Made by a program: the position numbers and the translations under genes
Notes under the pieces: generated by a model
Databases searched by the model: none
What the model was told of the DNA's origin: nothing
What the model saw: only the letters and a program-made list of their open reading frames with translations
Virus record (IMG/VR): IMGVR_UViG_3300031628_000005
Span: 1 to 49,998 of that record
Strand: one strand, 5' to 3'
DNA from: a virus
Lineage: Duplodnaviria; Caudoviricetes
DNA length: 49,998 bases
Shown here: piece by piece, positions 4,121 through 47,727 of the stretch
Layout of the letters: each line of letters starts with the position of its first letter
Position numbering within the stretch: position 1 is the first letter of the stretch

Positions 4121-4149
4121 TATATGTAATCAAGCAGACAATAAACTAA

Positions 4150-4201: not shown

Positions 4202-4255
4202 ATTAACTATAAATTAAACCAATAAACAATTATACACCTATAAACAAAAACTATT

Positions 4256-4354
4256 ATGAGAAAATTCAAACACACATTACTACTAAGATTTACACAACTA
4301 AGAACATTTATTAAGAATATTGAAATACAAGGTTTAGACGAAACTACTTGGTAA
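4256..4354 (+). CDS. 32-aa early hypothetical protein
   Basis: MRKFKHTLLLRFTQLRTFIKNIEIQGLDETTW, with A-rich leader AAACAAAAACTATTATG. Confidence 0.55.
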   Translation: MRKFKHTLLLRFTQLRTFIKNIEIQGLDETTW

Positions 4355-4386
4355 TACAAACTAAATACGAATACAAACGGATAATA
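4355..4386 (+). promoter_or_regulatory. early phage promoter copy 2
   Basis: TACAA-acta-AATACG-aatacaaac-GGATAATA, ending 21 nt before ATG 4408. Confidence 0.75.
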
Positions 4387-4407
4387 ATAATGTAACTAAA
4401 AATAACT

Positions 4408-4584
4408 ATGCAATATATACTAACTTGTCAGAACGGCAAACAAATCGACATGACTTCTTACATAAATCTTCAATCAGAAAGTAAACTAACTAGACAAGAT
4501 GTTGTTGACAGAATAGAATTCTACAAATCTACTAACTTAACAAAATCTTCTTCTTATAATCTTTTACAAAATATAATATTATAA
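4408..4584 (+). CDS. 58-aa early hypothetical protein
   Basis: MQYILTCQNGKQIDMTSYINLQ...NIIL, directly after promoter copy 2 with an AAAAATAACTATG leader. Confidence 0.6.
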   Translation: MQYILTCQNGKQIDMTSYINLQSESKLTRQDVVDRIEFYKSTNLTKSSSYNLLQNIIL

Positions 4585-4635
4585 CTAATAAATGGTGACT
4601 ATCCGAACCAGAGTAATACACAAACTGGATAGACA

Positions 4636-4676
4636 AGACATAATGGTTGATGTGAGTTCGATTCTCGCGATGTCTA
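4636..4676 (+). ncRNA. armless tRNA-like element (acceptor stem + T arm only)
   Basis: AGACAT/ATGTCT stem, T arm GTGAG-TTCGATT-CTCGC, ending ACTA like the tRNA-Met. Intergenic, with no D or anticodon arm. Confidence 0.45.
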
Positions 4677-4691
4677 CTAAAATATAATACT

Positions 4692-4895
4692 ATGACTGAA
4701 AAATTTAAAGATTACCCGGCTGATCAAATTAAAGCCAAACTAAAACGAGTTGATGAGTTCGAAGCAAAGTACGGGCCTAAAGCTACAAGTAAATCTTGGC
4801 GTAAATGGTGTACTGACTACAGCTACAGAAAACAAGAATGGCAATTTAGACAAAACTTTGCTAATACAATAATGCAAAATCAAACAACTTACTAA
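4692..4895 (+). CDS. early hypothetical protein
   Basis: 67-aa ORF with A-rich leader. Confidence 0.65.
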   Translation: MTEKFKDYPADQIKAKLKRVDEFEAKYGPKATSKSWRKWCTDYSYRKQEWQFRQNFANTIMQNQTTY

Positions 4896-5059
4896 TGGAA
4901 GTAATGATATTAAACGGTGAAAGATACCTCATCAATACACAAACTCACGACGGCGGCGACCATCAATGTGACTATTTAATAAAACAATTTCCAGATGACG
5001 TTGAAATTGACTGGGATGAAGTGAAGCATTCAGATTTTACAAACAAAATACGATTGTAA
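4895..5059 (+). CDS. 54-aa acidic early hypothetical protein
   Basis: MEVMILNGERYLINTQTHDGGDHQCDYL...KIRL, TAATG overlap with the previous gene. Confidence 0.6.
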   Translation: MEVMILNGERYLINTQTHDGGDHQCDYLIKQFPDDVEIDWDEVKHSDFTNKIRL

Positions 5060-5069
5060 CTGGATAATA
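5038..5069 (+). promoter_or_regulatory. early phage promoter copy 3
   Basis: TACAA-acaa-AATACG-attgtaact-GGATAATA. Confidence 0.75.
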
Positions 5070-5093
5070 TAAATGTAACTAAAAAATAATACT

Positions 5094-5294
5094 ATGAAAA
5101 ACTTTAAAAAAATTAACTCAACAACAATTATGCTTGACAGCAAAAAGTATAAAGGCTATACTGTTGGCGACTTACCTAAAAGATTTGCATTCATTTACAA
5201 TGAAGACAATGACCAAGACGGCATAACTGAATTCTTCAACTACCAAGGCTTAACTTATGTTGAACATAACCCTTCAATCTGGTCTTATGTCTAA
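5094..5294 (+). CDS. early hypothetical protein
   Basis: 66-aa ORF directly after promoter copy 3. Confidence 0.65.
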   Translation: MKNFKKINSTTIMLDSKKYKGYTVGDLPKRFAFIYNEDNDQDGITEFFNYQGLTYVEHNPSIWSYV

Positions 5295-5505
5295 TCCAAC
5301 TAATATGAAAGAATTGTGCGATTATGCAAAACAAGCACAAAAAAACCGTGGTCGCGAGCATAGGCGTGCCCACTCCCATGAGAAGTGTAGCGGACTGACA
5401 GATATTGAGTACAATGCGGTGGTTACACGTCAAAAAAGTACTTTTGCCAAAGGCAAATCATATGCTTACACTGCTCGATGGAGAGCCTTTACAGAAACCC
5501 TTTAA
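5287..5505 (+). CDS. basic early hypothetical protein
   Basis: ATG 5287 (MSNPTNMKEL...) overlaps the previous stop, so it is preferred over the track's start at 5257. Confidence 0.6.
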   Translation: MSNPTNMKELCDYAKQAQKNRGREHRRAHSHEKCSGLTDIEYNAVVTRQKSTFAKGKSYAYTARWRAFTETL

Positions 5506-5514
5506 ACTACAACT

Positions 5515-5694
5515 ATGAGTAAAATGAAACAACTAGACGAAATCGCAGAAGGAATTGCGGAAGTCACCAAAGAACTAATGTATGATTCAATTGACTGGCA
5601 ACTGTCAGATTTTGAACAAGACGGTGATGACTACAACGCTATTCATTCTGAAGTAATGAGATTAGCAATTGAAAAAATGTATTTACAAACGTAA
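5515..5694 (+). CDS. 59-aa acidic early hypothetical protein
   Basis: MSKMKQLDEIAEGIAEVTKELMYDSIDWQLSDFEQDGDDYN...; AAACTACAACTATG leader. Not in the ORF track. Confidence 0.65.
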   Translation: MSKMKQLDEIAEGIAEVTKELMYDSIDWQLSDFEQDGDDYNAIHSEVMRLAIEKMYLQT

Positions 5695-5715
5695 TACGAA
5701 GCTAATTGGATAATA
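5684..5715 (+). promoter_or_regulatory. early phage promoter copy 4
   Basis: TACAA-acgt-AATACG-aagctaatt-GGATAATA. Confidence 0.75.
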
Positions 5716-5744
5716 ATAATGTAACAAATAAAAACAAATAAACT

Positions 5745-5933
5745 ATGTATTGTAAATGCGGTGAAAATGTACATCCTGTACGACTTGAATTAGGCTATAA
5801 CACTTGTATGCCTTGTAGTACAACCCAAACCTATTCATATGTTCCTATAATCGAACATAAAACCGGAAATACAATACAAATTGTCAGCCAAGAAGTAAGT
5901 GCATCTGTGCATCGTGCTTGGCGACGTAAATAA
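5745..5933 (+). CDS. DksA/TraR-like C4 zinc-finger protein
   Basis: CKCGENVHPVRLELGYNTCMPC resembles the C..CG..I...RL......C..C DksA/TraR finger. No N-terminal coiled coil. Confidence 0.55.
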   Translation: MYCKCGENVHPVRLELGYNTCMPCSTTQTYSYVPIIEHKTGNTIQIVSQEVSASVHRAWRRK

Positions 5934-5935
5934 CC

Positions 5936-6013
5936 GGGGGTGACTTGGTATTGACGTGATAGAAAGCCTATATGGAACTATTGCGGAAGACAGTTCGAAT
6001 CTGTCCACCTCCA
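5936..6013 (+). ncRNA. minimal tmRNA: tRNA-like domain only, no tag ORF
   Basis: Acceptor GGGGGTG/CACCTCC-A with G3.U70. Stemless D-loop ACTTGGTATTGA. Helix CGTGATAG/CTATTGCG, GAA linker, T arm GACAG-TTCGAAT-CTGTC. Confidence 0.8.
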
Positions 6014-6022
6014 CTGAAAAAT

Positions 6023-6054
6023 TACAAACAGAATACGACAACTAACGGATAATA
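6023..6054 (+). promoter_or_regulatory. early phage promoter copy 5
   Basis: TACAA-acag-AATACG-acaactaac-GGATAATA. Confidence 0.75.
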
Positions 6055-6076
6055 TAAACGTAACTAATAAATAACT

Positions 6077-6286
6077 ATGACAAAAACACTTTACGAAAGA
6101 ATGAAACCAGAATTTAAAACAACTTTAGCTAAAAAATATGCTGACAGACCACATTCACACGAAGCTTTAATCAGAATGCTTAGCGATGAACACTATTATA
6201 CTGCAATTCCCTACGGCGATGCGTTTGATATCATGGCTTCTTGCGATATAGATTTTCTAGGCGAAGCATTTAAGCAATCAAAATGA
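6077..6286 (+). CDS. early hypothetical protein
   Basis: 69-aa ORF directly after promoter copy 5. Confidence 0.65.
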   Translation: MTKTLYERMKPEFKTTLAKKYADRPHSHEALIRMLSDEHYYTAIPYGDAFDIMASCDIDFLGEAFKQSK

Positions 6287-6510
6287 TTATGTGTGAATGG
6301 GCGCTTGCAGATATTAAGAATAGAGCAAGCAGTAAAGCTTTTGCTAAAGTTACAATACTAAAATTAGATATTGAAGACTATAAGCGAAGCTTAAAACAAG
6401 GAACTTACGGCGGAATTACTTACGAAGAAGCTGAACAAGTACTTGATGGCTACAAAACAGAGCTAAAAGTATGGAATTTTATAGCAGAATTAATAGAAAA
6501 ACAAAGATAA
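6283..6510 (+). CDS. early hypothetical protein (helical)
   Basis: 75 aa, ATGA overlap with the previous gene. Confidence 0.6.
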   Translation: MIMCEWALADIKNRASSKAFAKVTILKLDIEDYKRSLKQGTYGGITYEEAEQVLDGYKTELKVWNFIAELIEKQR

Positions 6511-6959
6511 TGAAAGAAAAACTAATAACAGACGAGCTTATTGAAGCTAAAATGATAAGCTATGGCTTTGGCGAAACAGATTCTCACGATGAAGAATATG
6601 TAAGAAAACTAATACTTGAGCATTACGACGCTGAGCTAACTGATCAGTGGCAAAAAAATTGCGATTACTATATTTACGAAGAATCTACAGCCGATGGCTA
6701 CAGCGTATTTGTAGCTTGCTACGACACTAGCTCTATAAGTGTAAACGAAGACATACATTATTACGACAGTGATCTTAGCGGCAAGCTTGAAAATGCAATT
6801 AGAGACGGCGGTGAAATATACGTTGACGACTATCATCAAGACTTTATTGATGACGCTATGCAAGAATTATATTTATATTTAGCCGAAAGATTTCACCAGC
6901 AAGCAATTGACGAGCTTGAAGATGAAGGCTACAAACAAAATACGGCGGTAGCTGGATAA
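6510..6959 (+). CDS. highly acidic early protein (candidate DNA mimic)
   Basis: Start 6510 via TAATG overlap, 149 aa. Hand count 37 D/E versus 10 K/R, and Tyr-rich. Confidence 0.6.
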   Translation: MKEKLITDELIEAKMISYGFGETDSHDEEYVRKLILEHYDAELTDQWQKNCDYYIYEESTADGYSVFVACYDTSSISVNEDIHYYDSDLSGKLENAIRDGGEIYVDDYHQDFIDDAMQELYLYLAERFHQQAIDELEDEGYKQNTAVAG

Positions 6960-6961
6960 TA
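6930..6961 (+). promoter_or_regulatory. early phage promoter copy 6 (upstream of tRNA)
   Basis: TACAA-acaa-AATACG-gcggtagct-GGATAATA, 11 nt before the tRNA. Confidence 0.7.
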
Positions 6962-9156: not shown

Positions 9157-9908
9157 AAAAGTACAATGTACAAAACTATATAAGATACAAAGAAGATCTT
9201 AAAGCATCTATGCCTCCTGATAAGTTTTATGATTATTACACTAGAGATCAACTTATTATTAAATTCATGCCTCTTGTTGAAAATTTAGCACGTAAGTTTT
9301 CAACTACACAACAAGCATCTGGCGTATTAAGTATAAATGATTTGCTACAAATTGGCAATGAAGGCTTAATTAAAGCTGTAGATAAACTAGATTGGGATTT
9401 ATTAATTGATTCAGATGATATTGAAAAAACTTTAAAAAGCTTTTTTAGCAAAAGAATTAAAGGCAATATCAGGCGTAGAATTGACATGATGCGAGGCGAT
9501 ATAAGAATACCAGAACACAAGCTGACTGAAATACGTAATAACCCTAAAGATAAAATTATGGTTGCTATGTTTTTTAACAGCGTGTTTTTAAGTATTGATG
9601 CCCAAGTTACAAATGACGATGACGAAAACATGATGCATCAAGTTGAAGATAAATCAGAGCCTTATAATATACAGCTAATGAATGTATATCTTAAAGGCTT
9701 AATGCAAAAATACTTAACAGGTAATGAATACGAAGTGCTGAGATTATCATACGGTTTAGATTGTGATAAACATTCAGCTAAAGAAATTGCAAGCATCTTA
9801 GATATTAAAGGTGTTAGCTCTTATGTAAGAATATCAGAGCTTAAAAAACAAGCAGTACAAAAGCTGATTGACAACGTTGATCATTCTCAAGTACTTGATA
9901 TCCTATAG
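9153..9908 (+). CDS. RNA polymerase sigma70-family factor
   Basis: Region 2 (LIIKFMPLVENLARKF...DLLQIGNEGLIKAVDK), IRIP linker and region 4 (LTGNEYEVLRLSYGL...SAKEIASIL...AVQKL). Confidence 0.88.
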   Translation: MKKYNVQNYIRYKEDLKASMPPDKFYDYYTRDQLIIKFMPLVENLARKFSTTQQASGVLSINDLLQIGNEGLIKAVDKLDWDLLIDSDDIEKTLKSFFSKRIKGNIRRRIDMMRGDIRIPEHKLTEIRNNPKDKIMVAMFFNSVFLSIDAQVTNDDDENMMHQVEDKSEPYNIQLMNVYLKGLMQKYLTGNEYEVLRLSYGLDCDKHSAKEIASILDIKGVSSYVRISELKKQAVQKLIDNVDHSQVLDIL

Positions 9909-20919: not shown

Positions 20920-23900
20920 TATTTGTTTTTAGGCATTAGTTCTAATATTTTATTTACTCTGTTTTTTTCGTATTGTAAAGCTCTTATTTGTTTTTTAGTT
21001 AAACCATATTTAAGTAATGTTTTTACTTGGTCAGGTTTGTTTTCATCTTTAATAGAATCAAATTGTCTTCTAAGCCTTCTTTCAGCACTTTCGTTTTTAG
21101 GTTTTGCTTTTACTTTAGGTGTTGGTTTAGTTTCTTCTTTTATTTCTTCTTTAACTTTAACTTCTTCTTTAGGATTAGCTTCTGCATTTTGCAGCTCTAT
21201 AATTTTTTCAACTCTAACTTGTTCTTTACCTAAAGCTTTTATTTCTTTTTTAGTTAATCCTAAATCTAATAACATATCAATTTGCTCTTTAGTTTTAGTA
21301 AGCTTTTTCATGTCATCAATTTCTTTTACTTTTTCTTCCTCAGGCGTTAATACTTTAGCTGCATCAAATCCTCCGTAATAACCTAAACCTACATCCCAAG
21401 TAGACCAACCAAGACCTAAAGCAACTTTTTGCCAAAGAGAAGACTGTTCGCTTACAATACCTCGCATGCTATTTAGCTTTTTAATAACTCTATCCAGCGG
21501 AATATTAGTAAGACCGGTTGTTATTTGAGCACCTGCTAAATAAGCTGGGTTATCTAAACTTAAACCTTTGTTTTTAATGTCTTTCATGTTCCAGCTAAAG
21601 CTTCTAAGCCCACCGTTTATTTTTTGTATTTTAGAACCAAGTGGTGGTGAAAAACCTAATAAATCAAATACAGCCTCTTCATACGCAGGACGATTCTTAG
21701 CATGCTGCTTACCTAATTCCATCAAAGCACTTTTTATTGCAACTACTGCTGCTCCACCTATGCCTAATCCTTTTAATTGTGAATCAATCATACCGTTAGC
21801 TATTCTTGAAATCTTTTCGCTTTTCTTAGCGTCTTGTTGTTCTTCATCTTCATCTTCACCAAATCCTAAAGCAAATACAGCTTGTTGCAATGCATTAAAT
21901 ATTAAATTTTGCACCGCCCCGTAATAAACAATTTTAGATACATTTGTTTTCCAATCACCTCTGCCATTTGCAATATCCTGCGCTGCTCTTTTTTGTATAC
22001 GAGCATACTGCATTGGTGTATTTGCCCAAGCTAATATAACACGACCTGCTCCAGATGCTTGTTGTTGGCTAATTCTATTCGGATTACTTGATTGCTGACT
22101 TTCTTCTGCTATTTGTCTAAAATCTTCAAAAGCTTGTGCTTCTGCAGCCTTTTGTTCCATCCCTTTAGCAACTAAAGCTTTTACTCTGTTTCTATAAAAT
22201 GTAGAACCACCTGTTGCAATAGCAAAACTATCTGCAAATCTAGTCATAACAAAACCTTTACTTAGTAAAAACGCTATAGCTGATTTAACTTTGTTATTTG
22301 AATCTCTCACAGCATCTGCAATTTCAGATTCACTTACATTAATCTTAAGGCCATTTCTACGTTCAACTAAATAGTCAGAGTTCATTAGCGTCATGAAGTC
22401 ACCCCAAAATTGTTTTTGATTTGCAAATGCTGCACCTGCTTTAACTATATTATTATCACCCCAGTTTATAAAGTTTACCGCAGATATAGTTTGTAAAAGC
22501 GCAGAACGCGTGTTTAAGAACATTACAGCACCCACAGAATTGTTTAGCCAATCTAATATGCCGTCTGTTACACTGTTCCCGCCTGGCGGCCTGTTGCTTC
22601 CAGACTTCATTCTACGTATAGAATCTTCTAAAGCATTACGCCATCTAGTTCCATACGCAGCTTCCATTTTATTTAAATTATCTTCAGAAAATATAATATT
22701 AATGTTTTCTCTCCATTCTTGCTGATATTCAGCTCTGTTAACTTTATTAATATCATTTATAATATCACCAGTAATGTTGCCGCCTAACCAGCTTTTGCCT
22801 GGTTTTGGATATGGTTTACCTTTTTGAATTTTCATTAACTCATCAGTAAAAACGCTAAGCTCAGCATTGTTATCTACAAAATCGTTTAATTCTTTTATAT
22901 CTTTTTTAGATAACCCGGGTATATCCATACCTTGTTTTGACCACACGGCTACACGAACGGCATGCGAAAATGTAAATCCTCCTATACCTGTTGGTTTACT
23001 TAAACTTTTAGGTAAAGTTTTTAAGTTTTGTTTTAATGCTTTAAAATCATTTGCCGCAGCTATCTTAGCTTGCGTTACAGCCGACTCAGCTCTATCATAA
23101 GGATCAAGTAAGTTTGTTTTAAGAAATGCCATTTGAGCATCACCTTTTTTGCCTTTACCTAACATTTTATATAACAAACCTGTAAAGTCTTCAGCGCTTG
23201 CGGGAATAAAGAAATTAAATCGACCTTTACTAGCGCCCACTGTTTGAGCTCTCGCAGCAGAATATTGTTTATATGTTTCAATTCCAGAAGAATCTTCAAT
23301 CATATCATTTACGATAGTATCAAAAGTTTCTAGTTTGCTTTCTTTTGCCAATTGAACTTTAGATTTAACATCAATTTGACTAAGCACATTTTTTACAGCT
23401 TGTACATTTTTAATTGCATCATCTGCAAAGTAAAAATCATTATAGCCTTCTGCGGCTTTACCCATTATCCAGCCAGCTTTTGCTTCAGCTGTACCGTCAC
23501 CTAGACCTGTTATGTTTTTTAAAGGTATATTAATACCGTTTGCTTCCATAAAAGCTTTTATAGGACCATCAGCATTTTGAGGCCTTGCTGTAAGTATAAA
23601 TACATCTTCAGTTCCTCTAGCATCTGCTATTTTTTGAGCAACTTCAAACAAAGGACCTTTTTTGCCTTCGACAACTTTGCTAAATTGTGTAAAATCAAAC
23701 TCAGCACCTTGAGACTCAAGATTTGAGGCTTGTTGAGCAAATTGCGTAGCATTTATTTGATTAGTAGAACCGTCAGGCATATTAACAATAACCATGCTTT
23801 TCGACTTTGCAAGTGTATCATCAAAATCAAACACTCTAATTTTTTTAACAGGAGCGTTTAGTTTTCTAGCATTGTTTAAAGCTTTATCAGTTTTTTCTAA

Positions 23901-26900
23901 TGCGTTTACAGCTTTTTGTACAGTTATAGGATTGTTATATTTTATATCATTTGGTATTAAATCGCTATCAAGTTTAGAAGCCATTGATTTTCCTTCCACC
24001 AAAGGTAATGCCGATTTAATAACTTTTGCTGCATTATAATCAGAGTTCTCTATAGTTCTTAATATGGCTTCGTTTTGAATATTAGAAGCTTGTACTTTTT
24101 CATTAGCATTATATCCATCATATATTTTTGGATCAATACCAAATCCGCTTTCTTCAGCAATTGTTTTTCCTGTGTCAGGATTTTTAAGTGTGTTTAAATC
24201 AATTCCTGCAGCGGCAAGTCTTGTTATAGGGTTATTAAATATACTTTGACCTTCTGCTAATGTAGAATCTAATTTAGCCTGGTCTAATAAATCATCATCA
24301 AATTTAGAAAGTTGTGTTTGATAATAATTTTCTTTTATAGCCTCCATTGTAGGAATAGCAGCATTATTTTTAATAGCTAAAAGTATAGATGCTCCAACTA
24401 CCGAGGCAGGTGGATTATGCTCTTCTCTATATTTTTTACCTTCTCTTTGCTGTTTTTTTGAATTAATACCTCCATATCTCATTTCAATTGAGCGATACTT
24501 AAATTGTGCAGATATTTTTACTAAACCTGTAGTAGCTTGATAACTCTGTATAATAATAGCAGCGCCTATATCTAATGACATACCGCCTGCAACGGCATCG
24601 GTAAGTTGATTAACTACATGATCTAAAACTACCATATTATCTTTAGCTCTTTGCGCAGCTAATTCTCTAACTTTTTTATTTTTAGAAAAAGCTTGAATAG
24701 GCGATACTCGCATAGCTTTAGGGCCATTGTAAGAGTTAGCACTTTTTATTAGTTTTTTGTAAGCGGGATCACTTTTGCCGTAATATAACCTACCAGGTTT
24801 AGCAACCCAGTTTGTTATGCCTTTAGTTGTAATCTCAACAAATTTTCCGTCTTTTGTTTTTCCAAACTTAATAGGTTTTTTTATTCCACCTTCAAAAGCT
24901 TGCTTAGCAGAAGAATACATTTTTCCTCCTTTAACACCATAAAAAGTTTGTTTACCACCACTACCCATTTTACCGGCTTCTATAGTAGTAATGTCTAATC
25001 CATATTCAACAACAGCTTTCTGCATAGCGGTTTGCTGAGCCTTTCTATTAGATTCATTTATAGGTGGAGACTTAAAGTCTAAATCCGCTGCTAATTGTTT
25101 TTTGTTTTTTAAAACAGAAACAGCTTTAAATGAGGTTTTTAGCTTAGGAGGCATACTATCGTAACTTTCTAATTTACTAGCCATAGATGCGTTTTTGCCC
25201 GCAGCAACATCTTGTTTGGTTTCTAAGCTTAAATCAGTATCTGATCTTACAATTTCGTTTGTTACAAGTTTTCCGTATAAATTAGCAATGCCTTTTAAAG
25301 CCTGCGCTTGAGAAGACCTTGCATTAAATCCTTCTTGTTTTTTGCCATCAACGATACCAAATGCTTCCAAAAACTGCGCTTTAGTAATTCCTTTATTTAA
25401 AACAAACGGAGCAAGCCCGGCGCCTTTACCAAGTCTAGCTTTTTTAGTATAAAATGCGTCAAGCAATCCTTTTGGCACGCCTGTAGAGGTACCTAAGAGC
25501 TTCTCTGTTGCAGCTTCTACTACTGCGCCTTGTGGTAATATCTTTAATAGTTTATCAGCGTTCTTATTAACAAATTGCTGTATAGCTGTTGCATCTCCTT
25601 TTGATAAATTAGCAGCGGGTACAGTAAGTTTTTTAACCGGTATACCAATTTCTTCTGCAATAATTTCAGGAGCTAAGTCACCAAGCTTTTTAAACGTTAG
25701 ATTTTTAGGATCAATGCCTTCAATCTTTTCTTGCACCTGCTCTTTAATCTTGCCTACAGCATTGTTAGATATAAGAGAGCTAGGTTTTATTTTTCTTTTT
25801 ACAGGTTTTGGAGTAACTTCTGTTGTTATTTCTTCAGCCATTACGCCTTTAGCCTCCGTAACATCGGTTGTAAATTCTTCTCCTAAAACTCTTTGGGAAG
25901 CTTCTATAGCTCTAGCTGGTAAAAATTTGTTTATATAAGCAGCTAATGGAACACCTGATTCAGGTTTGTACTCTTTAATTAAATCAATTATGCCACGCTT
26001 ACCTGTTTCTATTTCGTCTGTTAAAAGTTGACGATCAAAATTAGGTGCTTCACTTCTTTTTTCTACTATTTTACTTACTATAGGCTTAAATTGCTCTATA
26101 ATTTCAAAAGCCCCATCTTTGCCTTTTGTTTCATAAATAGTTTGCACGTTTTCACTTGCCTTAATATTAGATTCTAGCTTGCTTTCTTTTGCAATTATGT
26201 CTTTTGTTTCGGATTCAACTTTAGCTAGTTGGTTGTCTATTGATTTGGTTTCACGAGCTCCTTTGGTTCTACCGTCAACCTTTTCGACTATTCCATCAAC
26301 TAATTTACCTTTTGCTCCTTCTTTGGCTATCTTAAGCTGAGCTTCATTTAATTTGTTACCAGAGTTAATTGTATCGTTATAGTCTTTTAAAAAATTAAAA
26401 ACATCTAATCCAGTGTTAAACTCAATATTTAATGGCTGTTTTTTATTAGATTTAAAAACATTAGATATTTTATCTCTTAACGCTTCGAAAAAGCCTTTTG
26501 TTTTTTCATTATAAACAATGTCACCATTCGTAATAGCCTCACTAACTAAAGGAATAACTTCCTCATAAGTCATTTCAGCTGAATAATTTTTATCATCTAT
26601 ATAGTCTTGAAGCCTAGCTCTCATTTTATCTCCGCCTTCAATTTGCTTATTGTTTAATATCTCTGTTATTAAAGACTTGCCAAAAGTTATAGCTAGCTCA
26701 GGATTGTTTTGAAATGTTTGTTTAAAAAATGGATGTAAGAGTTCATGCTGGTCAGTAGTATATTTATTTCGTTCTGCAGCAACTCTGTCATTTATTAATA
26801 TAATAGTTTCACCGCCAAACTCAACAGCCTGGCCGTATCCTAATGATTTTTGTACTTTAGCACCCTTATCTGCAAGCTCTTTAACTCTAGCATCGTAAGA

Positions 26901-32857: not shown

Positions 32858-35800
32858 CTATGTACATACTACTTGATTTGCTGTACCACAACCTTGACCT
32901 TGGCCACCGCTACCGCCACCTGCTGGTTGAAAGCCTATAAAAGTATAAGGTGGAAATCCGTTTACAGCAACTGGGCAGATAGGTGAATAACATCCACCAT
33001 TGCCAATTGCAGCACAAACTCCTCCACCAGAAACCGCAAATTGCGTAGTTATATTTGCCGCTATTATAGATGTAACTGTTACGAGAACAAGACTACTATA
33101 ATTGTAAATACCTGAACACGCGCTTCCTGCTTGATTTGTCCATGTAACAATTCCCTTTCCAGTTATAAATCTTAATGAAGCTTTATTTGGTATAGTTGAC
33201 CAATCTATTGCGGTTTGCGGTTGTCCTCCTATATTGCTACTAGCTCTCATTTTTATTTGACCGGTAGCGTTGCTTCCAGTTTTATAGTATTGTATAGATA
33301 CGCTTGAGGACCACACTCCGTTTATTTGAACTTGAAGAAAAGATCCTCTAAAAGGGCCAGCTTTTTGTAAATCACCCGCTTGTATATTACCATCTGCTTC
33401 TTGATTGCAATAGCTGTATATGTTTGCAGTAGAATTTGGAATGTTTATACCTTCAATATTTATTATTTGATCTGCGTCAGCATAACTTCCGCTAACAAGT
33501 CCATTAAAAACAGCAGTAGCGTCTATAATAGCAGGCTCCCCATTGTTTAATACTGCGGGTGTAGGTCCTGTTTTAAGTAAATACTGAAATCCATCTACGC
33601 AAGCAGCTTCAATGTCAACATTAAAAGTACAGAGTGATGCGCCTGTTGACAACGACCCTAAATTAACTTCCCCTAAAGCATCTTTTAATGTTACTTCTAA
33701 TGTAAAAATACCTGCTGAAGTTGTGTTTTTAGTTATATTTAATGCGGCAATTTGATCTGTTCCTTCGGCCGGTATAACAGGAGTTCCTGTAAAGGGGCCA
33801 ACTCCATCAGCTAATACTACTCCAGCGGAATCTTTTTGAACTAATTCCCATATTAAATCTTGGCCCGCTAAATTTGCAACAGCAGGCGTTTGACCAGTAG
33901 CATCTTTATAAGCGGATCCATTGTAACCTGTTATTTGTGTTACAAATTCTACATCAATATCAACGACTACAACGGTATTGGCTGGAGGACAAACAATTGC
34001 TGGTATTATATTTATTAATTTTACTTCTTCTATAAATGTGCTTGCAGTTCCGTCTGTTGTTATAACTTTAAATTCAAAAGTAAAAACTCTAGGGGCAGGT
34101 AAAACTCCGTACCAAAATAAATTTTTAGTTTTTATTTGATAAGTTCCATTATTTAAAGATAAATCTAATTCAAAATCAAGAAGTCTATCAACACCATTTC
34201 CATCTGTAACACTTTCTAATAAAAATTCAGTTATATTTGCCTGTGGAATTTGAGCGCCAAAGCTGTCAGTTAAATAAAAAGGAGCTCCGTTTATAACAGT
34301 TCCTATAACTGCATTTTCTTTAAAGTTAGGTGTAGAAAAATTTTCTAAATTTGCACCACCTATTGATTCATCTAATATAGCAGTATTTAAATCGCTTATT
34401 AAACCACTAGTTGAAGTTTCCCAAAATATATCTAGTAAAGATTCTACTGGTTTGGTTTCAAAAACAGCTAAATTTTGTATATTAATAGGAGCAACTTGTG
34501 GTGAAAACAAAAGCAATGTATCGTCCGCTAATGTTTGAGCTTGATTAACTCTAACAGTTCCAATGCCTACAGTAAAACTTACAACTGAAGTGTCTGCTAA
34601 TATACCTGCTCCTGAAACTATATCTCCAGGTTTTGGCTGTAGCGATACATCACTAGAAAAAGCATCTACAGTAATGTCAATGTTATTTGTTATAATCCCA
34701 TTAACAGTAGCTTGAACAACTGTAGCGGGAACACCGAACTGAGTTGTTGTTGATATTCTTCCTATTAAAGGATTAGATTCAAAAAGATAAAACTCTTTAT
34801 AGCCCGCAACTGGATATCCTACTGAGGCTGGATTTAATCCAAACAAATCATTCATGCCAGCTATTGAACTTACTACTTCTGAAACTCTCCCTGGGTAATA
34901 TTGAGTATTTTTATCTGCAGTCCCTGATCCTATATTTAAATTTTCAACTCTTCCAAATAATTCTTCAGAGCTTCTGAACAGTCTTTGTAACGGACCTACT
35001 TCAGTTAAATCTCTAGGAATTTTATTTATATTATCATTGAATAAAACGGTATGTGATGTTTTACCTAATTCAAGCGTATTGTTTTCAGGATAAGCGGCCA
35101 TTACACCAGGCAAGTAAACATTATAATATTCTTGTTCTGTTTGTTTAACAACTATTTTAAAAGAATACCACCCGAGTGGATTGTACTTAGAATTAGTGGA
35201 TTCTCCATTGTAAATTCCAGGCCAGCCTGTTGCAGCGTTACTATCTAAAGGATATATAGGACTATTAAATAATACTTTTAAAGAATCACCTGGCCATTCC
35301 GCCGGAACCACGCCGGCTGATCTATATGGTGAAAATATTGTAGAACCTATATACTCCTGACCATCAACAACTGAACTGGCTAAACTATCTGAAAGTATAA
35401 CAGAAGACTGTCTTCCAAATTTATCAGATAAAACAATGCCCACTTGATAATTTCTATTTTCTTTTAATGAATGATTAGGATATTCAATTTTACTAACGTT
35501 AGCTTCAACATCGGAATTTGCAGTAAATAATAATAAAACACCAGTTGCTAAAGTAACATTGTTTGAGAAAGTCATAGCCAAGCTTGAGGGATCAAAGCTA
35601 ATAACAATTGTATTTGGCGGTATTATAGCACCCGTAACATTTGAAGAAACAAATGATCCAGTAAAAACATCTCCCGTTACATTTGTGTAATTAATAGTAG
35701 CCACGTTATTAAAAGTACCATTAACATTAACGGTACCAGCTTTTAAACTAAAATCAGCTTTAGGGGATGCATTAACATTATAATCTAAAGTTGCAGGAGG

Positions 35801-37408
35801 AGTGTGTTTATCTTGAAAATTAGAATAAACAACTCTATTGCTTATTACTTCTTGGCCAAAAGCTTTTACCGGCACTTTATCATATACTCTTACTATTTCA
35901 CTTTCGGGTAAAGTTTTATAAGGTTTTTTAGATTGATAATTGTATACAAAAAAATTAGGTTCTCCAATTGTAAGTAGTGTTGAATTAGATAAAGTTTGAT
36001 TAACACTCATTGTTATCGTAAAAGTATCTTGATTAAAAGCAACTACAGTGGTGCCGTCAACAACACCTTCTCCATTTACAATGCTTCCTACCTGTATACC
36101 TCCTACTCTATTTCCAACTACAATATCTCTCACTCCTGAAAAATTTCCGCTAACATTGCAGGTGCCTGATTGGCTTGCTACTGTTCCAATAGGTATTGTA
36201 TCTACAACTTTTACTGCTAGTTGGTCTGCCTCTTTATAAAGTATATCAATTTCCGTAACTTTTAAATCACTTTGAAGTAAAGAATTAGTTGACTCTAAAG
36301 GAATTTTTAAAAGTATTTTATCTACTTTATTTTCTACAAATTCAACAATAGTTGTTCTGTATGCTGCTTCTTCATCATCTTGTTCAATACCTGTTGCAGC
36401 CGGTGTTTTTTGCATAAAATAACCATCTTGCTTTGGTATAAATGTTATTTGTGTAAACGGAGCAAAAACTGAATACTCTCCGTCATCATATCTAAATCTA
36501 TAAGAAAATCTTACGAACCTATCTTCTAAATAACTAGGATCCCCATTAAATGTAGATTCATAATAAGGGTTAGCATTAAAAACTAATTCTACATTATTGC
36601 TTAAAGTTTGAGCTTGATTAACTTGTAAGTTTGGTTCATTGTATGCGACAACTGTGGTTCCGGCTGTTACCCCAGTCCCGGTAACTATTGATCCAACAGG
36701 TATAGAACCAATTATATTATCTATTGGAAAAGTTGTCAAAGCTGATACTGCTCCATTAGTTAAAGCCTCTCCTCCATTAGGATAGAACTTAGACGAAACA
36801 TCGTACATAGTTGTTTCATATTCTACCTCAGAAGCTGATGTGCCTAATTGACTTTCTTGCCAAAGCTGCATAGGCTGGTATGGAAAGTTTTTAGCTACGG
36901 ATATTTGTTCTTCTTTTGTGTAATATCCTAGCGTTTCTGTTGCAGTTACTATATTTATTTTTCTTGGCTGGTTTCTATTGTCCGTCCAAAATAATAATTC
37001 TTCTAAAAGATTAACTCCATAAATAGGATTAGATTGAGAAAAATTTAAAAATGCGCCAGAAATAAGCAAATTGCTTTGGCCAGTTAAAGTGTTATAAGAA
37101 TATATACCATGACTTTTACTTGGGTCATATGTTGGACTAGGTTCGTTAGGGTCTAAATAATTTGTTACAAAAACATATACCATAGACGATGAATCGTCTG
37201 CAAAGTACCCTATTGATTGTGATCCACCTCCGGCAAAATCTACAAGTTCGCTATTTCCTAAAACATTTTCTAATGAGCCTACAGTATCACTTTCAGATCT
37301 ACTTATTTGAACATTTAAAGCATTTCTATATTCACCTTGAGGCAATATTCTAGCATCTAGATCTTTATTCATTCTAGACCTTAAAAAATTATTTTTTGCT
37401 TGTGCCAT
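32858..37408 (-). CDS. tail nozzle/muzzle (stabilisation) protein, N-terminal-type part
   Basis: MNKDLDARILPQGEYRNALN, LLFWTDNRNQPRKINI, RFSYRFRYDDGEYS and YQVGIVLSDKFGRQS motifs. Four internal beta repeats. Confidence 0.7.
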   Translation of the reverse strand: MAQAKNNFLRSRMNKDLDARILPQGEYRNALNVQISRSESDTVGSLENVLGNSELVDFAGGGSQSIGYFADDSSSMVYVFVTNYLDPNEPSPTYDPSKSHGIYSYNTLTGQSNLLISGAFLNFSQSNPIYGVNLLEELLFWTDNRNQPRKINIVTATETLGYYTKEEQISVAKNFPYQPMQLWQESQLGTSASEVEYETTMYDVSSKFYPNGGEALTNGAVSALTTFPIDNIIGSIPVGSIVTGTGVTAGTTVVAYNEPNLQVNQAQTLSNNVELVFNANPYYESTFNGDPSYLEDRFVRFSYRFRYDDGEYSVFAPFTQITFIPKQDGYFMQKTPAATGIEQDDEEAAYRTTIVEFVENKVDKILLKIPLESTNSLLQSDLKVTEIDILYKEADQLAVKVVDTIPIGTVASQSGTCNVSGNFSGVRDIVVGNRVGGIQVGSIVNGEGVVDGTTVVAFNQDTFTITMSVNQTLSNSTLLTIGEPNFFVYNYQSKKPYKTLPESEIVRVYDKVPVKAFGQEVISNRVVYSNFQDKHTPPATLDYNVNASPKADFSLKAGTVNVNGTFNNVATINYTNVTGDVFTGSFVSSNVTGAIIPPNTIVISFDPSSLAMTFSNNVTLATGVLLLFTANSDVEANVSKIEYPNHSLKENRNYQVGIVLSDKFGRQSSVILSDSLASSVVDGQEYIGSTIFSPYRSAGVVPAEWPGDSLKVLFNSPIYPLDSNAATGWPGIYNGESTNSKYNPLGWYSFKIVVKQTEQEYYNVYLPGVMAAYPENNTLELGKTSHTVLFNDNINKIPRDLTEVGPLQRLFRSSEELFGRVENLNIGSGTADKNTQYYPGRVSEVVSSIAGMNDLFGLNPASVGYPVAGYKEFYLFESNPLIGRISTTTQFGVPATVVQATVNGIITNNIDITVDAFSSDVSLQPKPGDIVSGAGILADTSVVSFTVGIGTVRVNQAQTLADDTLLLFSPQVAPINIQNLAVFETKPVESLLDIFWETSTSGLISDLNTAILDESIGGANLENFSTPNFKENAVIGTVINGAPFYLTDSFGAQIPQANITEFLLESVTDGNGVDRLLDFELDLSLNNGTYQIKTKNLFWYGVLPAPRVFTFEFKVITTDGTASTFIEEVKLINIIPAIVCPPANTVVVVDIDVEFVTQITGYNGSAYKDATGQTPAVANLAGQDLIWELVQKDSAGVVLADGVGPFTGTPVIPAEGTDQIAALNITKNTTSAGIFTLEVTLKDALGEVNLGSLSTGASLCTFNVDIEAACVDGFQYLLKTGPTPAVLNNGEPAIIDATAVFNGLVSGSYADADQIINIEGINIPNSTANIYSYCNQEADGNIQAGDLQKAGPFRGSFLQVQINGVWSSSVSIQYYKTGSNATGQIKMRASSNIGGQPQTAIDWSTIPNKASLRFITGKGIVTWTNQAGSACSGIYNYSSLVLVTVTSIIAANITTQFAVSGGGVCAAIGNGGCYSPICPVAVNGFPPYTFIGFQPAGGGSGGQGQGCGTANQVVCT

Positions 37409-43125: not shown

Positions 43126-45513
43126 CTACATGAAAGCTTGCATGCCCTCTTCGGGCTGACTTTCAAAGTTTATTGGCAAGCCGTCATTTTTTCTTTGACT
43201 TATTAATTCACTTTGTTGTGATGCTTCCATTTTACTACGAGTATCTTTACGATCTTCAATTGCGCCTTCTTTTTGTTGGACGTTTTGAACATCTAATTGT
43301 TTAAGCTTCATATCGTACTGGAATCTTGTTTGCATTTTTTTTGCTTCTAATTGTGCTGCAATTTCCATTCGTTGAATTTCCATTTGATTTTTGGATTGTT
43401 CGAATTGCACGTTGGCACCCATTATAGCTTCTTGTTTTTGCACTTCTGCCATTGCTGTTTTTTCCGCAGTGGATGCTTGAGATTGTCCTTGAGCTGCAAT
43501 ATTAGCTTGTTGATTAGCTTGATCTTGCTTAGCTTTAGCTTTACGCTTAATTTTAAGCATTTGATTTGCTAGCTTAAGATTTTTAATATTCCTTAAATCA
43601 ATAGCATCTTCAAGATCAATACCTCCTTGCTGTAATGCAACTTGTATGTTATTTTCTAATTGAGCTTGTTCTTCATCGTCTGGTTCTAATTCTAAAAATA
43701 TACCAAAATCATGAAGGTTTAAATTTACTATTTCTTCTAATGTTTTAATATTAAATGTAGATATAGAATTTTGTAATGCGCTTTTTGTTAGAGGGAATTC
43801 TAATGCATCAGCTATTTTAAGAGCAATGTTTTCGGCTAGTTTAAGAGTAATATAAAGACTTGACTGGTTAATATGCCTTGTAGCAACATTGGACGCGTTA
43901 GCGGCCATCTTCTGCAGTCCTACTAATGAGTTCTTATCCATAGCTGTTCCGTCTCTTGCTTCATTAAGACCGGTTACATCACGAATCATTTGTAAGTAAT
44001 ATTGATACGTTTGTATAAGAGCATTAATTTTAGATTGACCACTTGAACTATTAAGTTCTTGAATAGGTACTTTACCTGCATTCATATCTCCATCTTGCGT
44101 AAGCGATCTACCAACTATAGAACCTGTTTGGAAATACATATTTAATGCTTCTGCTGGGTTATAATTAGTTCCATTGCCAAGGTCTACTTCTGCTAAGCCG
44201 TCCATATCTAAGTAAACACCATCTGGCACCATACGAGATAAAACTTGTTGCAGTTTTAAATGAGTTAACTGGATCATATCAGCAAACCCAACACATTTGC
44301 TTACAAGAGACTCAATGCGTCCTTTGTACATTCTAGGCGCGCATAAAGCGTAGTTCATTTCTACTTTAGTTGTATCAGCCGTAGGTCTGGACATGTTTTT
44401 TGCTAACTCCCACTTCACCATTTCATTAGAGCCTAATACTTTAGCTCCTGTATATAATACTTCAATGGATCTTGACACTCTTTCAAAGTTATCATTTTCT
44501 GGCGGATTAAATGAATCAGGCTTTTCTAAAGCTTTTAATAATCCTTGGGGAGTTTCTTTTATTTTAAATACTTGATTATGATATGTTTTATAATCAAAAT
44601 ATAAAACTTGAACTGTATTTTTATCATAATTACCCCAGCCAGTTACATATTGACTATTGCCAGGTAATTTTTGAATTCTTGCTAATTCTTTTTCTGAAAT
44701 ATTTGGAAATTCTTTTTTAAGTTCTGGTATAGTTATAGACTTTACTTCTCCTACGTAATATACATCATCAAAGTTAGGGTCTTCCGTATAAGAATAAATA
44801 ACATAAGCAGGATCAACATATTCAACAGTAATTCCTTCAGCGGTATTAAAGCTAGTTTTCGCTACTGCCATGCCTAGTACTGTTAAGTCCATATTTAATC
44901 TTCTTCTTGTAAGATCAAATTTATTTTGAGCAAGCACAGACGAAATAGCTTCTTCTTCTGCTATTTCTATAGATTGCTTATAACTTAATTGCATATGAAG
45001 CTCTAACTCGTCTTTAGACTCAGGTACTATATCAATATTTGGTGTTTGGTATAAATTAATACCTAGTGTTTGTTGAAGACTATCTAGATATTCTTTAGAT
45101 ATCATATCTTCATAAAGCATAGAAGCATAATCAGTTCTTTTCTTTATAGAAGACGGGTCTTGAGCGTAAGCTTTAATATCGTAAGACTTTCCAGATATAC
45201 CATTTACTACGATGTCTACAAATTTAGATAGAATAGGTACTGGCTTCCAGTCCAAGTTTAAATAAGATAAATCACCGTTTATAGATAGCTCATCTTTGTA
45301 CTTTTGTATTGATTGCTCTCCTCTAGCATATAATCTTAATTGATGGAATTGATTCCAGCTAGTTAAATATCTATTACCATTAGTTCGCCCTTGACCAAAC
45401 CACTCGTATTCAATAGCCTGCCCAACTTGCGTCCCGTATTCCAAACTTGCTTTTTCTGCATCACTTACTACTTGACTAGGAAAAGCGCTATTGGTGTTAG
45501 TATATATACTCAT
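43126..45513 (-). CDS. portal protein
   Basis: 795 aa directly after terL. IRDVTGLNEARDG motif and long Q-rich C-terminal barrel helix (P22/crAss-type). Confidence 0.85.
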   Translation of the reverse strand: MSIYTNTNSAFPSQVVSDAEKASLEYGTQVGQAIEYEWFGQGRTNGNRYLTSWNQFHQLRLYARGEQSIQKYKDELSINGDLSYLNLDWKPVPILSKFVDIVVNGISGKSYDIKAYAQDPSSIKKRTDYASMLYEDMISKEYLDSLQQTLGINLYQTPNIDIVPESKDELELHMQLSYKQSIEIAEEEAISSVLAQNKFDLTRRRLNMDLTVLGMAVAKTSFNTAEGITVEYVDPAYVIYSYTEDPNFDDVYYVGEVKSITIPELKKEFPNISEKELARIQKLPGNSQYVTGWGNYDKNTVQVLYFDYKTYHNQVFKIKETPQGLLKALEKPDSFNPPENDNFERVSRSIEVLYTGAKVLGSNEMVKWELAKNMSRPTADTTKVEMNYALCAPRMYKGRIESLVSKCVGFADMIQLTHLKLQQVLSRMVPDGVYLDMDGLAEVDLGNGTNYNPAEALNMYFQTGSIVGRSLTQDGDMNAGKVPIQELNSSSGQSKINALIQTYQYYLQMIRDVTGLNEARDGTAMDKNSLVGLQKMAANASNVATRHINQSSLYITLKLAENIALKIADALEFPLTKSALQNSISTFNIKTLEEIVNLNLHDFGIFLELEPDDEEQAQLENNIQVALQQGGIDLEDAIDLRNIKNLKLANQMLKIKRKAKAKQDQANQQANIAAQGQSQASTAEKTAMAEVQKQEAIMGANVQFEQSKNQMEIQRMEIAAQLEAKKMQTRFQYDMKLKQLDVQNVQQKEGAIEDRKDTRSKMEASQQSELISQRKNDGLPINFESQPEEGMQAFM

Positions 45514-47727
45514 TTAACTTATTATTTTTGATGTTGAACCTTTATTATCGTATTTTTTAATACCTAAATCCACAGGTTGAATTTCTGTTTTAGGCGGATT
45601 AGGTGCATACCTATGTTTGTTGCAAGCCATTAAAGCTAGCCCCGAACTTATAGATGCATCATGCTTTGTTCTGTTGTTAATATCAAACTTTGCCCAGTCT
45701 TCTAATGTTCTTTGAAAATAAACATCACCATAGCCTGTTTCTTTTAAACCTACAAAATCATTTACATATGTTTCTATAGCCGCAGCATGAGCTTGTTTTA
45801 TATCTTCACTAGAGTTTGGTATTCCTCCAAGTTCTCGTTCTGTTATTGAAAGTTTATTATATTTTTTATCAGGCCTATTAATTGAGTAACCTCTATATCC
45901 TCTACGTTTAAAATGATATAATAATCTTGGTTTATTGTTTTCAGCTAGTATTGGCATTCCGTAAAATACACAAGCCATTAAAACATCTTCAAAAAATATT
46001 TCAGCAGTTTGCGGTCTAGCTATATATTCTAAAAAGAAATGATTAGGAGGCACATCCTCCATGCTAAACTTGGTTAAGCCATGAAGAGATCCATTAGATC
46101 CTCTGCCATCTGTAGTGCCCGATATATCGTATGGATCACAACCAAATGCCCCGCAATGCTCATTACCAGGATGATTAGTGCCATTTTTTATATATCTTTT
46201 ATTTTGTAAATTTGCAGGAGGAACCCAAGTTACTAAAAATCTACCGTCTTTATTTGGCACAAATAGTACTTTAGTATCCTTATGACCATTTTCCCATTGG
46301 AAACTTCCTTGCGTTACATTAACTGAGTTCTTAAGATCTTCATTAAAATCTATTTGCTCGTATATCTTTGTTAAATTAAATAAAGATTGTTTAGATTCGT
46401 CTCTAAATGCATGCTTGGTTGTTCGTGGAAACTGTCTGTAGAATTCATTTAAACTATCTTGATCAGACTTTAAGCCTTCTACTTCATTGTCCCAGTATTC
46501 TATTACGCCTTGTGTTATTTTTGTTCCGTGTGGATCTTCAGCGGGCTTTTTTGGTGTAATGAATACAGGTAGGCCATAAGAATCAATGTATCCTTCGTAA
46601 TTCCATTCCATAGGTATGAACAAAGAATAGAGTCCTGAGCGAGTCTGTCCATTGGCGTTTCTTTTGGTAACATCCGAATTTTCATAAAGCTTTTTGAAAT
46701 TAGCACCACCTTTATCAAGTGAATTTGATGTTGATCCCATCATACACTTTCCAATAACTCTACTACCTAATCTAAGGGTGGTTTTTGTAACCCTCCAGTT
46801 GTTAAGGATGTTGTTGGGCCTTTCCCATTTCCCCGATTCATCATGGACGAGGAGCCTGAGCTTCTCCCCATCGTAGGCATTGTCGCCGGTGTTCTTCCAG
46901 TCGATGGTCGTGTCCAGACCGGTAATTTCTTTTTGGGTTTGATTGGAATCAAGTTTTCTACGGGTAAATTTGGAAGCAGGGACTCTGTAGGCAAGCTCGG
47001 TCTTGGGCCTGTCCATACCGTCCTGGATCGGTTTGAAGAAGAATGGATAGTTAACGGATATTGGTACCACTTTATCTGTGAACATCTTCTTAGCATCGGC
47101 ACCAGATTTGGACAATATGCCGTACCGTGAATCCGTGGATATTGTAGCAAGGTTGACCGATTCAGCTGAGGACATAAATGAAAAGCCTGACCGACGGTTT
47201 TTAAGATAACACATTCCATAAGACCGTGTGTCCGATTTACAAGCTTCCCAGAAAATGTAGAATAATCTATTTGATTCTCTAAAGTCCGGTTGCCCGACGT
47301 CAATTTTACTCCACTGCAGGTACATATAATTAGTGCCAGTAATGTAAGTAGGAACACCTTTGCTAGTGAACCAAAAACCTTCTTCACGCCTTGTAAATTC
47401 TTTGTCAATATAGTCATACCATTTTTCTTTAAAGTCTAACGGGTATTCTTCCCAGTCAAACACAGATTTAATTTTACTTAATTCTTTTGGGTATGGTGTA
47501 TAAGTCCACTTGTCTTTTTCAAATTCAACAATATCTTTTACTTTAGGCAAAGCTATTTTAAGATTTTGTATTTCATAAATCTCGCCTATTTCACCTGTTT
47601 TACTTATAACTATTAAATCATGCTCTTCGTTATAACCATAATCCCATTTTTTATACCTATTCATTCTATTAAGAACCTTAGGTTTTACGTAGTCTTTTAA
47701 GACTTTATATAAAGTTTGCTTATACAT
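45514..47727 (-). CDS. terL: terminase large subunit
   Basis: Walker A LKNRRSGFS, Walker B LLVHDESGK, coupling motif MGSTSN, RNase H-like FGCDPYD, AENN and HDASIS. ATG 47727 preferred. Confidence 0.9.
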   Translation of the reverse strand: MYKQTLYKVLKDYVKPKVLNRMNRYKKWDYGYNEEHDLIVISKTGEIGEIYEIQNLKIALPKVKDIVEFEKDKWTYTPYPKELSKIKSVFDWEEYPLDFKEKWYDYIDKEFTRREEGFWFTSKGVPTYITGTNYMYLQWSKIDVGQPDFRESNRLFYIFWEACKSDTRSYGMCYLKNRRSGFSFMSSAESVNLATISTDSRYGILSKSGADAKKMFTDKVVPISVNYPFFFKPIQDGMDRPKTELAYRVPASKFTRRKLDSNQTQKEITGLDTTIDWKNTGDNAYDGEKLRLLVHDESGKWERPNNILNNWRVTKTTLRLGSRVIGKCMMGSTSNSLDKGGANFKKLYENSDVTKRNANGQTRSGLYSLFIPMEWNYEGYIDSYGLPVFITPKKPAEDPHGTKITQGVIEYWDNEVEGLKSDQDSLNEFYRQFPRTTKHAFRDESKQSLFNLTKIYEQIDFNEDLKNSVNVTQGSFQWENGHKDTKVLFVPNKDGRFLVTWVPPANLQNKRYIKNGTNHPGNEHCGAFGCDPYDISGTTDGRGSNGSLHGLTKFSMEDVPPNHFFLEYIARPQTAEIFFEDVLMACVFYGMPILAENNKPRLLYHFKRRGYRGYSINRPDKKYNKLSITERELGGIPNSSEDIKQAHAAAIETYVNDFVGLKETGYGDVYFQRTLEDWAKFDINNRTKHDASISSGLALMACNKHRYAPNPPKTEIQPVDLGIKKYDNKGSTSKIIS

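Follow-up and report, generated by a model that had tools for sequence, protein, structure and literature searches.

Transcription of the early genes of a bacteriophage is known to be started in two ways, either at promoters that are read by the host RNA polymerase holoenzyme or by a polymerase that is carried in the particle. The locus described here raises the question of whether a third way exists, in which a domain of the sigma-factor type enters the cell as part of a giant protein of the particle. The locus belongs to a 49,998-base virus record of IMG/VR (IMGVR_UViG_3300031628_000005, positions 1 to 49,998), and this whole stretch is referred to below as the window. Its leftward block of particle genes ends with an open reading frame (ORF) for a protein of 2,882 amino acids (aa), inside which an initial annotation, made from the sequence alone, had reported a sigma-like stretch and had proposed that this stretch is injected and redirects the host core RNA polymerase to six early promoters. 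The observation was confirmed, and the interpretation is partly supported. Residues 1131–1232 of the giant protein constitute, as a well-supported prediction from modeling, a very diverged domain 2 of the sigma-70 family. It is proposed here as a tentative reading, which falls short of an even chance, that this domain is likely cut out of the giant protein and delivered, docks on the host core enzyme and starts early transcription at sites of the form AATACG-N9-GGATAATA. The coordinates of the features discussed below are collected in Table 1.

Sequence similarity to sigma region 2

As a whole and in nine overlapping pieces, the giant protein matched no Pfam or PHROG family, even at an E value of 10. 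The span singled out in the initial annotation (nucleotides 25620–26110) encodes aa 1153–1316, and the sigma-like stretch was found within it, running from FEIIEQFKPIV at aa 1154 to ARAIEA at aa 1223 (nucleotides 25899–26108). The segment LAPEIIAEEIGIPVKKL, which had been described as resembling a helix-turn-helix (HTH), begins 75 aa past ARAIEA, where it had been placed, and the giant protein contains no catalytic motif of the DxDGD type of RNA polymerases (D.D[GA]D), in agreement with the initial description.

The likeness to region 2 of sigma-70, which had been drawn by eye, goes beyond chance in a profile–profile comparison as well as in the predicted fold described below. A profile of the Escherichia coli sigma factors RpoD (C-terminal 244 aa), RpoS, RpoH, FliA and RpoE was compared with a 31-sequence alignment of the family of the giant protein. 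In this comparison, aa 1149–1216 align in register with regions 2.1–2.4 over 64 columns (hhalign score 28.8, E 0.0036); reversed sigma columns scored 16.9 at best, and a score of 28.8 was attained by one of 200 column shuffles (mean 13.4, standard deviation 9.1). The first domain alone gave an E value of 0.0019, and its comparison with RpoS and RpoH gave 0.0022, while the probability that hhalign itself attaches to the region 2.1–2.4 alignments is just 9–14%. Five residues, D1184, G1189, G1192, G1205 and Y1211, are identical in this register to D403, G408, G411, G424 and Y430 of RpoD, respectively; in addition, Y1200 stands at the position of RpoD F419, and F1215 at that of RpoD W434. The alignment to the phage's own stand-alone sigma factor, which had also been made by eye, held in part: hhalign chooses the same register, but the match is not significant (E 0.29 with the single sequence and 0.073 with 12 relatives).

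A search of another kind, by protein-language-model features in the ESM Atlas (aa 1140–1240, named clusters), returned viral Sigma70_r2 clusters (0.96, 177 shared features); 25 of the 30 hits belong to the Sigma70_r2 cluster set and 5 to the “sigma factor” set. A match of this type is a lead and involves no alignment.

Predicted fold of residues 1131–1232

The AlphaFold2 model that was computed from the family alignment of aa 1130–1450 (mean predicted local distance difference test score, pLDDT, 78.3) consists of a helical domain (model residues 1–100), a disordered acidic linker (101–128) and a second domain (129–317). The sigma-2-like domain corresponds to model residues 2–103 (pLDDT 73–88 by block). 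The model was compared with 48,161 cluster representatives using VIA-align, a method independent of Foldseek, and ranks 1–27 were all occupied by sigma factors or by complexes that hold one, as judged by entry titles, a criterion that does not distinguish the identity of the chain within a complex. The best match was the SigB complex entry 8x6g_H (Z 8.5, root-mean-square deviation (rmsd) 3.1 Å, 86 residues), followed by 6pmj_F (sigma-28, Z 7.5), 5h6x_B (RpoS regions 1.2 and 2, Z 7.4) and 8hkc_E (sigma-32, Z 7.2) and, further down, by 4x8k_A (domain 2 of SigA, Z 7.0) and 1sig_A (Z 6.8). Overall, the sigma structures matched at Z 6.8–8.5 with an rmsd of 2.7–4.1 Å over 86–94 residues, and the first non-sigma row appeared at rank 28 (Z 5.6). 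In a Foldseek search against the PDB, all 49 matches listed were sigma chains, headed by 5vi5_F (E 0.046, probability 0.84), and in a structural search of BFVD the first two matches were pieces of giant proteins from uncultured viruses, after which many rows were phage sigma factors. The initial interpretation depended on a sigma-2 fold being predicted, and with sigma factors in the 27 best VIA-align rows and in every listed Foldseek row, such a fold is predicted.

This fold evidence carries weight because the list of matches is uniform and agrees with the sequence alignment. Three lines, namely profile–profile alignment, protein-language-model search and predicted fold, agree on sigma-2. With domain 2 of sigma-70 (PF04542; SigB 8x6g, RpoS 5h6x, sigma-32 8hkc, sigma-70 1sig), the phage domain has in common the predicted fold and the in-register regions 2.1–2.4; it differs in lying below every Pfam threshold, in being embedded in a 2,882-aa protein and in being followed, in place of sigma-3 and sigma-4, by a domain that matched no known fold.

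Conservation of the module and evidence to the contrary

Relatives of the module (E ≤0.01, counted as clusters) numbered 1,202 among proteins of 1,585–5,044 aa and 241 among shorter, mostly truncated proteins, and none of these relatives, long or short, bears a sigma annotation in Pfam. The module was confirmed in 253 stretches of IMG/VR. Among 119 long relatives, which cover the module by construction since they were found with it, identity per 50-aa block is 73–83% in aa 1151–1450, as compared with 28–48% in aa 701–1150; blocks in aa 2101–2700 are 59–86% identical, and the first 700 residues are mostly unalignable. Within this large family of giant phage proteins from metagenomes, no other part is as well conserved as the module.

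Several results weigh against the reading of this module as a delivered sigma factor. Tests that use sequence only do not call aa 1131–1232 a sigma factor: Sigma70_r2 (PF04542) was not matched at its gathering score by the whole giant protein or by nine pieces of it; none of 31 family members matched a sigma family of Pfam at E values up to 10; a six-frame search of the window with PF04542 found the stand-alone sigma only (9255–9395); and no sigma was found among 177,635 sequences of solved structures, either by phmmer with the stretch or by hmmsearch with the 31-sequence family profile. On the structural side, Foldseek gave no match against the PDB at E 0.001 or better, and Z values of 6–8.5 are, by the warning of VIA-align itself, middling for helical domains. 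The part of a normal sigma that reads the −35 element was not found when the domain that follows was searched by Pfam, Foldseek and VIA-align. Another sequence occupies the place of the sigma-2-like domain in 25 of 172 family members; these replacements comprise at least two recurrent, conserved types, they retain the following domain (P0090–P0121, P0133 and others), and they gave no sigma-like score in comparison with the E. coli sigma factors (E 0.05–0.3). Finally, blastn and tblastn searches of 50,697 GenBank phage records gave no match to the module, and the giant proteins of the nearest named phages, MW202828.1 and the Flavobacterium elemo phage, lack it by BLAST and by the family hidden Markov model (HMM); because the module is absent from both, no virion proteome bears on the giant protein. 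The matches that did appear among the solved-structure sequences, an OmpA-like chain (E 0.78) and Vps41 and Aim18 (both E 0.07), were at chance level and were rejected.

Two other explanations of the structural result were considered in this light. The domain could be a look-alike of sigma-2, or an exapted sigma-2, whose role is unrelated to RNA polymerase, for example as a helical adaptor in the ejection or assembly machinery. Common helical arrangements can score at Z 6–8.5, and there is no sequence match in Pfam or the PDB, but such a role is unlikely given that the 27 best of 48,161 comparisons are of one family, that the sequence profile aligns in register and that the language-model search names the same family. 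That the resemblance arose by chance, the model being an over-confident helical bundle, is highly improbable: although the single-sequence and HMM searches were negative, three quite different types of method point the same way, and the alignment is backed by the shuffle control.

The compact domain after the sigma-like part

The HTH-like segment of the initial annotation is present, but it lies in a separate compact domain that matched no sigma-3 or sigma-4 fold and shows only a weak, short likeness to region 3.1. Folded alone, aa 1254–1450 gave a confident compact model (pLDDT 84.7, predicted template modeling score (pTM) 0.81) that matched no structure (best Foldseek E 0.13; best VIA-align Z 4.2, none ≥5). 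The LAPEIIAEEIGIPVKKL region (aa 1298–1316) aligns weakly with region 3.1 of RpoD over 19 columns (hhalign E 0.032), colinearly with the region-2 match. Since the following domain matches neither sigma-3 nor sigma-4, the module is not a complete sigma factor as presently known; and since this domain has no structural match, the long two-domain alignments returned by Foldseek (200–260 columns, template modeling score (TM) ~0.2) do not show a full sigma. On the basis of the model, aa 1258–1446 may represent a new fold.

As a candidate identity of aa 1258–1446, sigma-3 or sigma-4 was set aside in view of the Foldseek result, which was headed by P450s (E 0.13, probability 0.2) and contained no sigma row, and the homeodomain and winged-helix rows obtained for aa 1254–1450 (Z 3.1–3.9) were not considered meaningful.

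Short tags enclosing the cassettes

The pattern [EA]SK[LRK][EDT][ST] has four matches in the giant protein, all of the narrower form [EA]SKL[ED][ST], as compared with 0.014 expected, and four matches occurred in none of 2000 shuffles. The first two of these tags enclose the sigma-like module together with its partner domain, a cassette of ~335 residues, and the third and fourth enclose a stretch with a DxDxT motif (HAD-like). When a looser form of the pattern was applied to nine relatives, the closest of them (P0004) had tags at the corresponding joints and two more (P0021 and P0010) at some joints, one match each was found in P0061 and P0097, and none was found in four more distant relatives. 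The tags may be cleavage sites of a polyprotein. Upstream of the cassette, an HExxH motif, read as HELLH, lies in a block that is conserved among relatives (TTDQHELLHPFF); judged by this motif, the region could be a zincin-type processing peptidase and is a candidate for that role.

The HAD-like stretch contains VFDFDDTLAK (aa 1914–1918, nucleotides 23814–23828, minus strand), with LTARP and FADD further on, and these segments presumably correspond to motifs I, II and IV of HAD phosphatases; in Pfam, the stretch gave DUF2608 only (E 0.01). In some relatives (P0010, P0019, P0022, P0119 and others), extra cassettes match Zeta-toxin/AAA kinase (PF06414, PF13671) or LysM (PF01476) families, which points to cassette shuffling.

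Motif clusters and the stand-alone sigma gene

The six copies of TACAA-N4-AATACG-N9-GGATAATA that had been proposed as early promoters are exact matches, with 0.05 expected and six found in 0 of 100 shuffles. Allowing at most 2 mismatches, the core AATACG-N9-GGATAATA was matched in all 12 module-bearing records searched, the window included. Same-strand clusters of 5–12 copies occur in 9 of the 11 relatives and 1–2 matches in the other two, while the control with the reversed pattern gave 0–1. The last block reads TGATAATA in two of the related records (G018 and G020 among G001–G021). Exact k-mer counting in the window revealed no second promoter class.

The Pfam Sigma70_r2 score of the stand-alone sigma, 21 bits, is under the cut-off of 24 (PF04542 match at 9255–9395). 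Of 11 related records with a completeness of 90% or more, 10 encode a homologue of ~250 aa. In the window, as in 8 of the 9 cluster-bearing relatives, the stand-alone sigma gene follows 1.5–6 kb downstream of the motif cluster and on the same strand; in the ninth, it is located at the opposite end of the linear record, again on the same strand. Given this downstream placement of its gene, the stand-alone sigma is probably not the factor that reads the motif sites first. The arrangement fits a factor, of whatever identity, that is present at time zero and reads the sites, with the stand-alone sigma acting later; taken together with the bracketing of the cassette by tags, it fits the scheme of the initial annotation, in which an injected sigma module, possibly released by proteolysis, serves the early promoters and the stand-alone sigma runs the middle and late genes.

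It is possible, if doubtful, that the sigma-2-like domain binds the host core without conferring promoter specificity, either as a tether that links the ejected protein and the incoming DNA end to the polymerase and thereby aids the entry of DNA, or as a decoy that blocks the host sigma from the core and thereby turns off transcription of the host. Sigma-2 is the main core-binding domain, and it alone is recognizable here, with no sigma-3 or sigma-4 fold; moreover, the phages themselves encode a full stand-alone sigma, which could be the reader of the motifs, and several DNA-contacting positions of RpoD differ in the hhalign register (W433 to K, Q437 to A). Against such a limited role, Y1211 retains the aromatic side chain of its RpoD counterpart Y430, the conservation of the 190-aa partner domain hints at more than simple docking, and, as the motif clusters precede the stand-alone sigma gene, another factor must read the motifs first.

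Comparison with known systems and the question of delivery

In crAss-like phages, the position of the giant gene is taken by genes for cargo proteins and the virion polymerase. The virion RNA polymerases of N4-like and crAss-like phages are giant proteins that are encoded with the particle genes, are ejected with the DNA and start early transcription at phage-specific promoters. This is the role proposed for the giant protein here; however, those proteins are polymerases, whereas the giant protein has no DxDGD motif and would borrow the core enzyme of the host. The T7-type polymerase family PF00940 was matched in 0 of 5 records by a search that had no positive control. A second point of comparison is gp55 of phage T4, a minimal late sigma that is essentially one sigma-2-like domain and recognizes just one −10-like element. 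A functional sigma factor made of sigma-2 only therefore has a precedent in gp55, and the structure of the gp45-dependent activation complex (7d7d_F) matched the model at Z 6.6 (rmsd 3.4 Å, 91 residues). In contrast to the phage domain, which is built into a giant late protein and has no known partner, gp55 is a free protein that is produced during infection and needs co-activators.

The third comparison is with the polyvalent proteins of phages and conjugative elements, for which a survey (Iyer et al., 2017, PMC5512222) proposes that zincin-like peptidases process them and that transcription is given a “jump-start”. The giant protein resembles them in its very large size and its multiple domains, in its HExxH motif, in the variability of its cassettes and in the conservation of its C-terminal part. 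The trait of many unrelated domains in one giant polypeptide is also present (sigma-2-like fold, HExxH, DxDxT and variable cassettes). For the C-terminal 676 aa, the nearest named ESM clusters carry LPD39/LPD38 (0.94–0.95), which is a lead only; a difference is that no LPD or peptidase family of Pfam was matched in the giant protein. The word sigma is absent from the main text of PMC5512222, and the excerpts of PMC7318152 that were available mention no virion sigma. Full-text searching of the literature, covering the portions of articles that such searches return, turned up no account of a sigma factor that is packaged or ejected.

In Flavobacterium phage elemoA, the giant gene at the syntenic position was annotated by its depositors as “structural protein”. 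It is quite unlikely that the giant protein stays out of the particle, being made late, with the cassette acting in the producing cell, for example as a specificity factor for late genes. Such a role would agree with the location of the gene on the same strand and in the same block as the late terminase-to-muzzle genes, and packaging is unproven for the family; nevertheless, the size of the protein, the place of its gene behind those for the muzzle and cargo proteins, the annotation of the syntenic elemo gene as “structural protein” and the polyvalent-like make-up (a lead; PMC5512222) fit delivered proteins.

A giant gene also occupies this position in the nearest named phages, at 741–12320 in L001 (3,859 aa) and at 83–11167 in L101 (3,694 aa). 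The sequence similarity of these genes to the window protein is near zero; the slot is conserved, and the content is not.

Proposed mechanism

The mechanism put forward here combines the predicted sigma-2 fold, the conservation of the module, the placement of the tags, the position of the gene in the particle-gene block and the location of the motif clusters upstream of the stand-alone sigma gene. Residues 1131–1232 are predicted to fold as domain 2 of the sigma-70 family. The cassette of ~335 residues would probably be excised from the giant protein, by cutting at the tags that the upstream HExxH domain may carry out, and would probably be packaged and ejected, and so delivered, with the DNA. 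In the infected cell, the beta-prime clamp helices of the host RNA polymerase core would serve as the docking site of the sigma-2 domain, and the 190-aa domain would contact DNA in place of sigma-3 and sigma-4. Early transcription from the conserved AATACG-N9-GGATAATA sites would then likely be initiated by the cassette, with the stand-alone sigma taking over at later genes. Viewed in its context, such an injected-sigma mechanism is coherent and plausible.

Extended to the phage group, the proposal becomes more speculative still: we would venture with some hesitation that these phages inject a sigma factor, in the form of a ~335-residue polyprotein cassette made of sigma-2 and a new DNA-contact domain, which takes over the host core at time zero and reads AATACG-N9-GGATAATA. 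If the proposal is true, a sigma-type domain in an ejected giant protein would be a third way of starting a phage infection, and it would explain how infection gets under way in a phage whose early promoters are not host-like and which lacks a polymerase. The module family concerned is large, comes from uncultured phages and is missing from GenBank phage records.

Gene order and nearest relatives

The window is that of a podophage of the Flavobacteriia-phage type, and its completeness is estimated at 78%. The leftward block contains, in order, the genes for the terminase, the portal, proteins annotated as virion-structural, the muzzle protein, two small genes and the 2,882-aa ORF. The rightward block begins with small genes, which are followed by genes for a DNA ligase, the 251-aa sigma, Erf, an exonuclease, a primase-helicase, a thymidylate synthase and a ribonucleotide reductase. 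The closest relative of the terminase is that of MW202828.1 (62% identity), followed by those of the Flavobacterium elemo phages (45%), and relatives are also found in Cellulophaga phages.

Table 1. Features of the window, with nucleotide coordinates, strand or gene block, and supporting remarks
Feature	Coordinates	Strand or block	Remarks
Motif TACAA-N4-AATACG-N9-GGATAATA, six copies	4089–6961	+	Among small rightward genes; candidate early promoters
Stand-alone phage sigma, 251 aa	9153–9908	+	PHROG 351, E 3e-19
Giant ORF (P0001), 2,882 aa	20919–29567	−	Final gene of the leftward particle-gene block
Tag ESKLET, aa 2076–2081	23325–23342	−	After the HAD-like cassette
Tag ASKLDS, aa 1863–1868	23964–23981	−	Before the HAD-like cassette
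Tag ASKLES, aa 1463–1468	25164–25181	−	Directly past the sigma-like cassette
Conserved compact domain, aa 1258–1446	25230–25796	−	Contains the HTH-like segment; no match to a known fold
HTH-like segment LAPEIIAEEIGIPVKKL, aa 1298–1314	25626–25676	−	
Acidic linker, predicted disordered, aa 1230–1257	25797–25880	−	Model residues 101–128, pLDDT <50
Sigma-2-like domain (predicted), aa 1131–1232	25872–26177	−	Long first helix, then equivalents of regions 2.1–2.4 in the predicted model
Tag ESKLES, aa 1128–1133	26169–26186	−	Directly before the sigma-like cassette
HELLH (HExxH) motif, aa 941–945	26733–26747	−	Upstream of the cassette; motif only, no Pfam match
crAss-type muzzle protein	32858–37408	Leftward block	Pfam crAss_MUZ
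Portal	43126–45513	Leftward block	
Terminase	45514–47748	Leftward block	

Adjoining the terminase gene, a 201-aa protein (47946–48551, minus strand) matches the co-chaperonin GroES in PHROG (E 3e-24), and GroEL/GroES are encoded by relatives as well.

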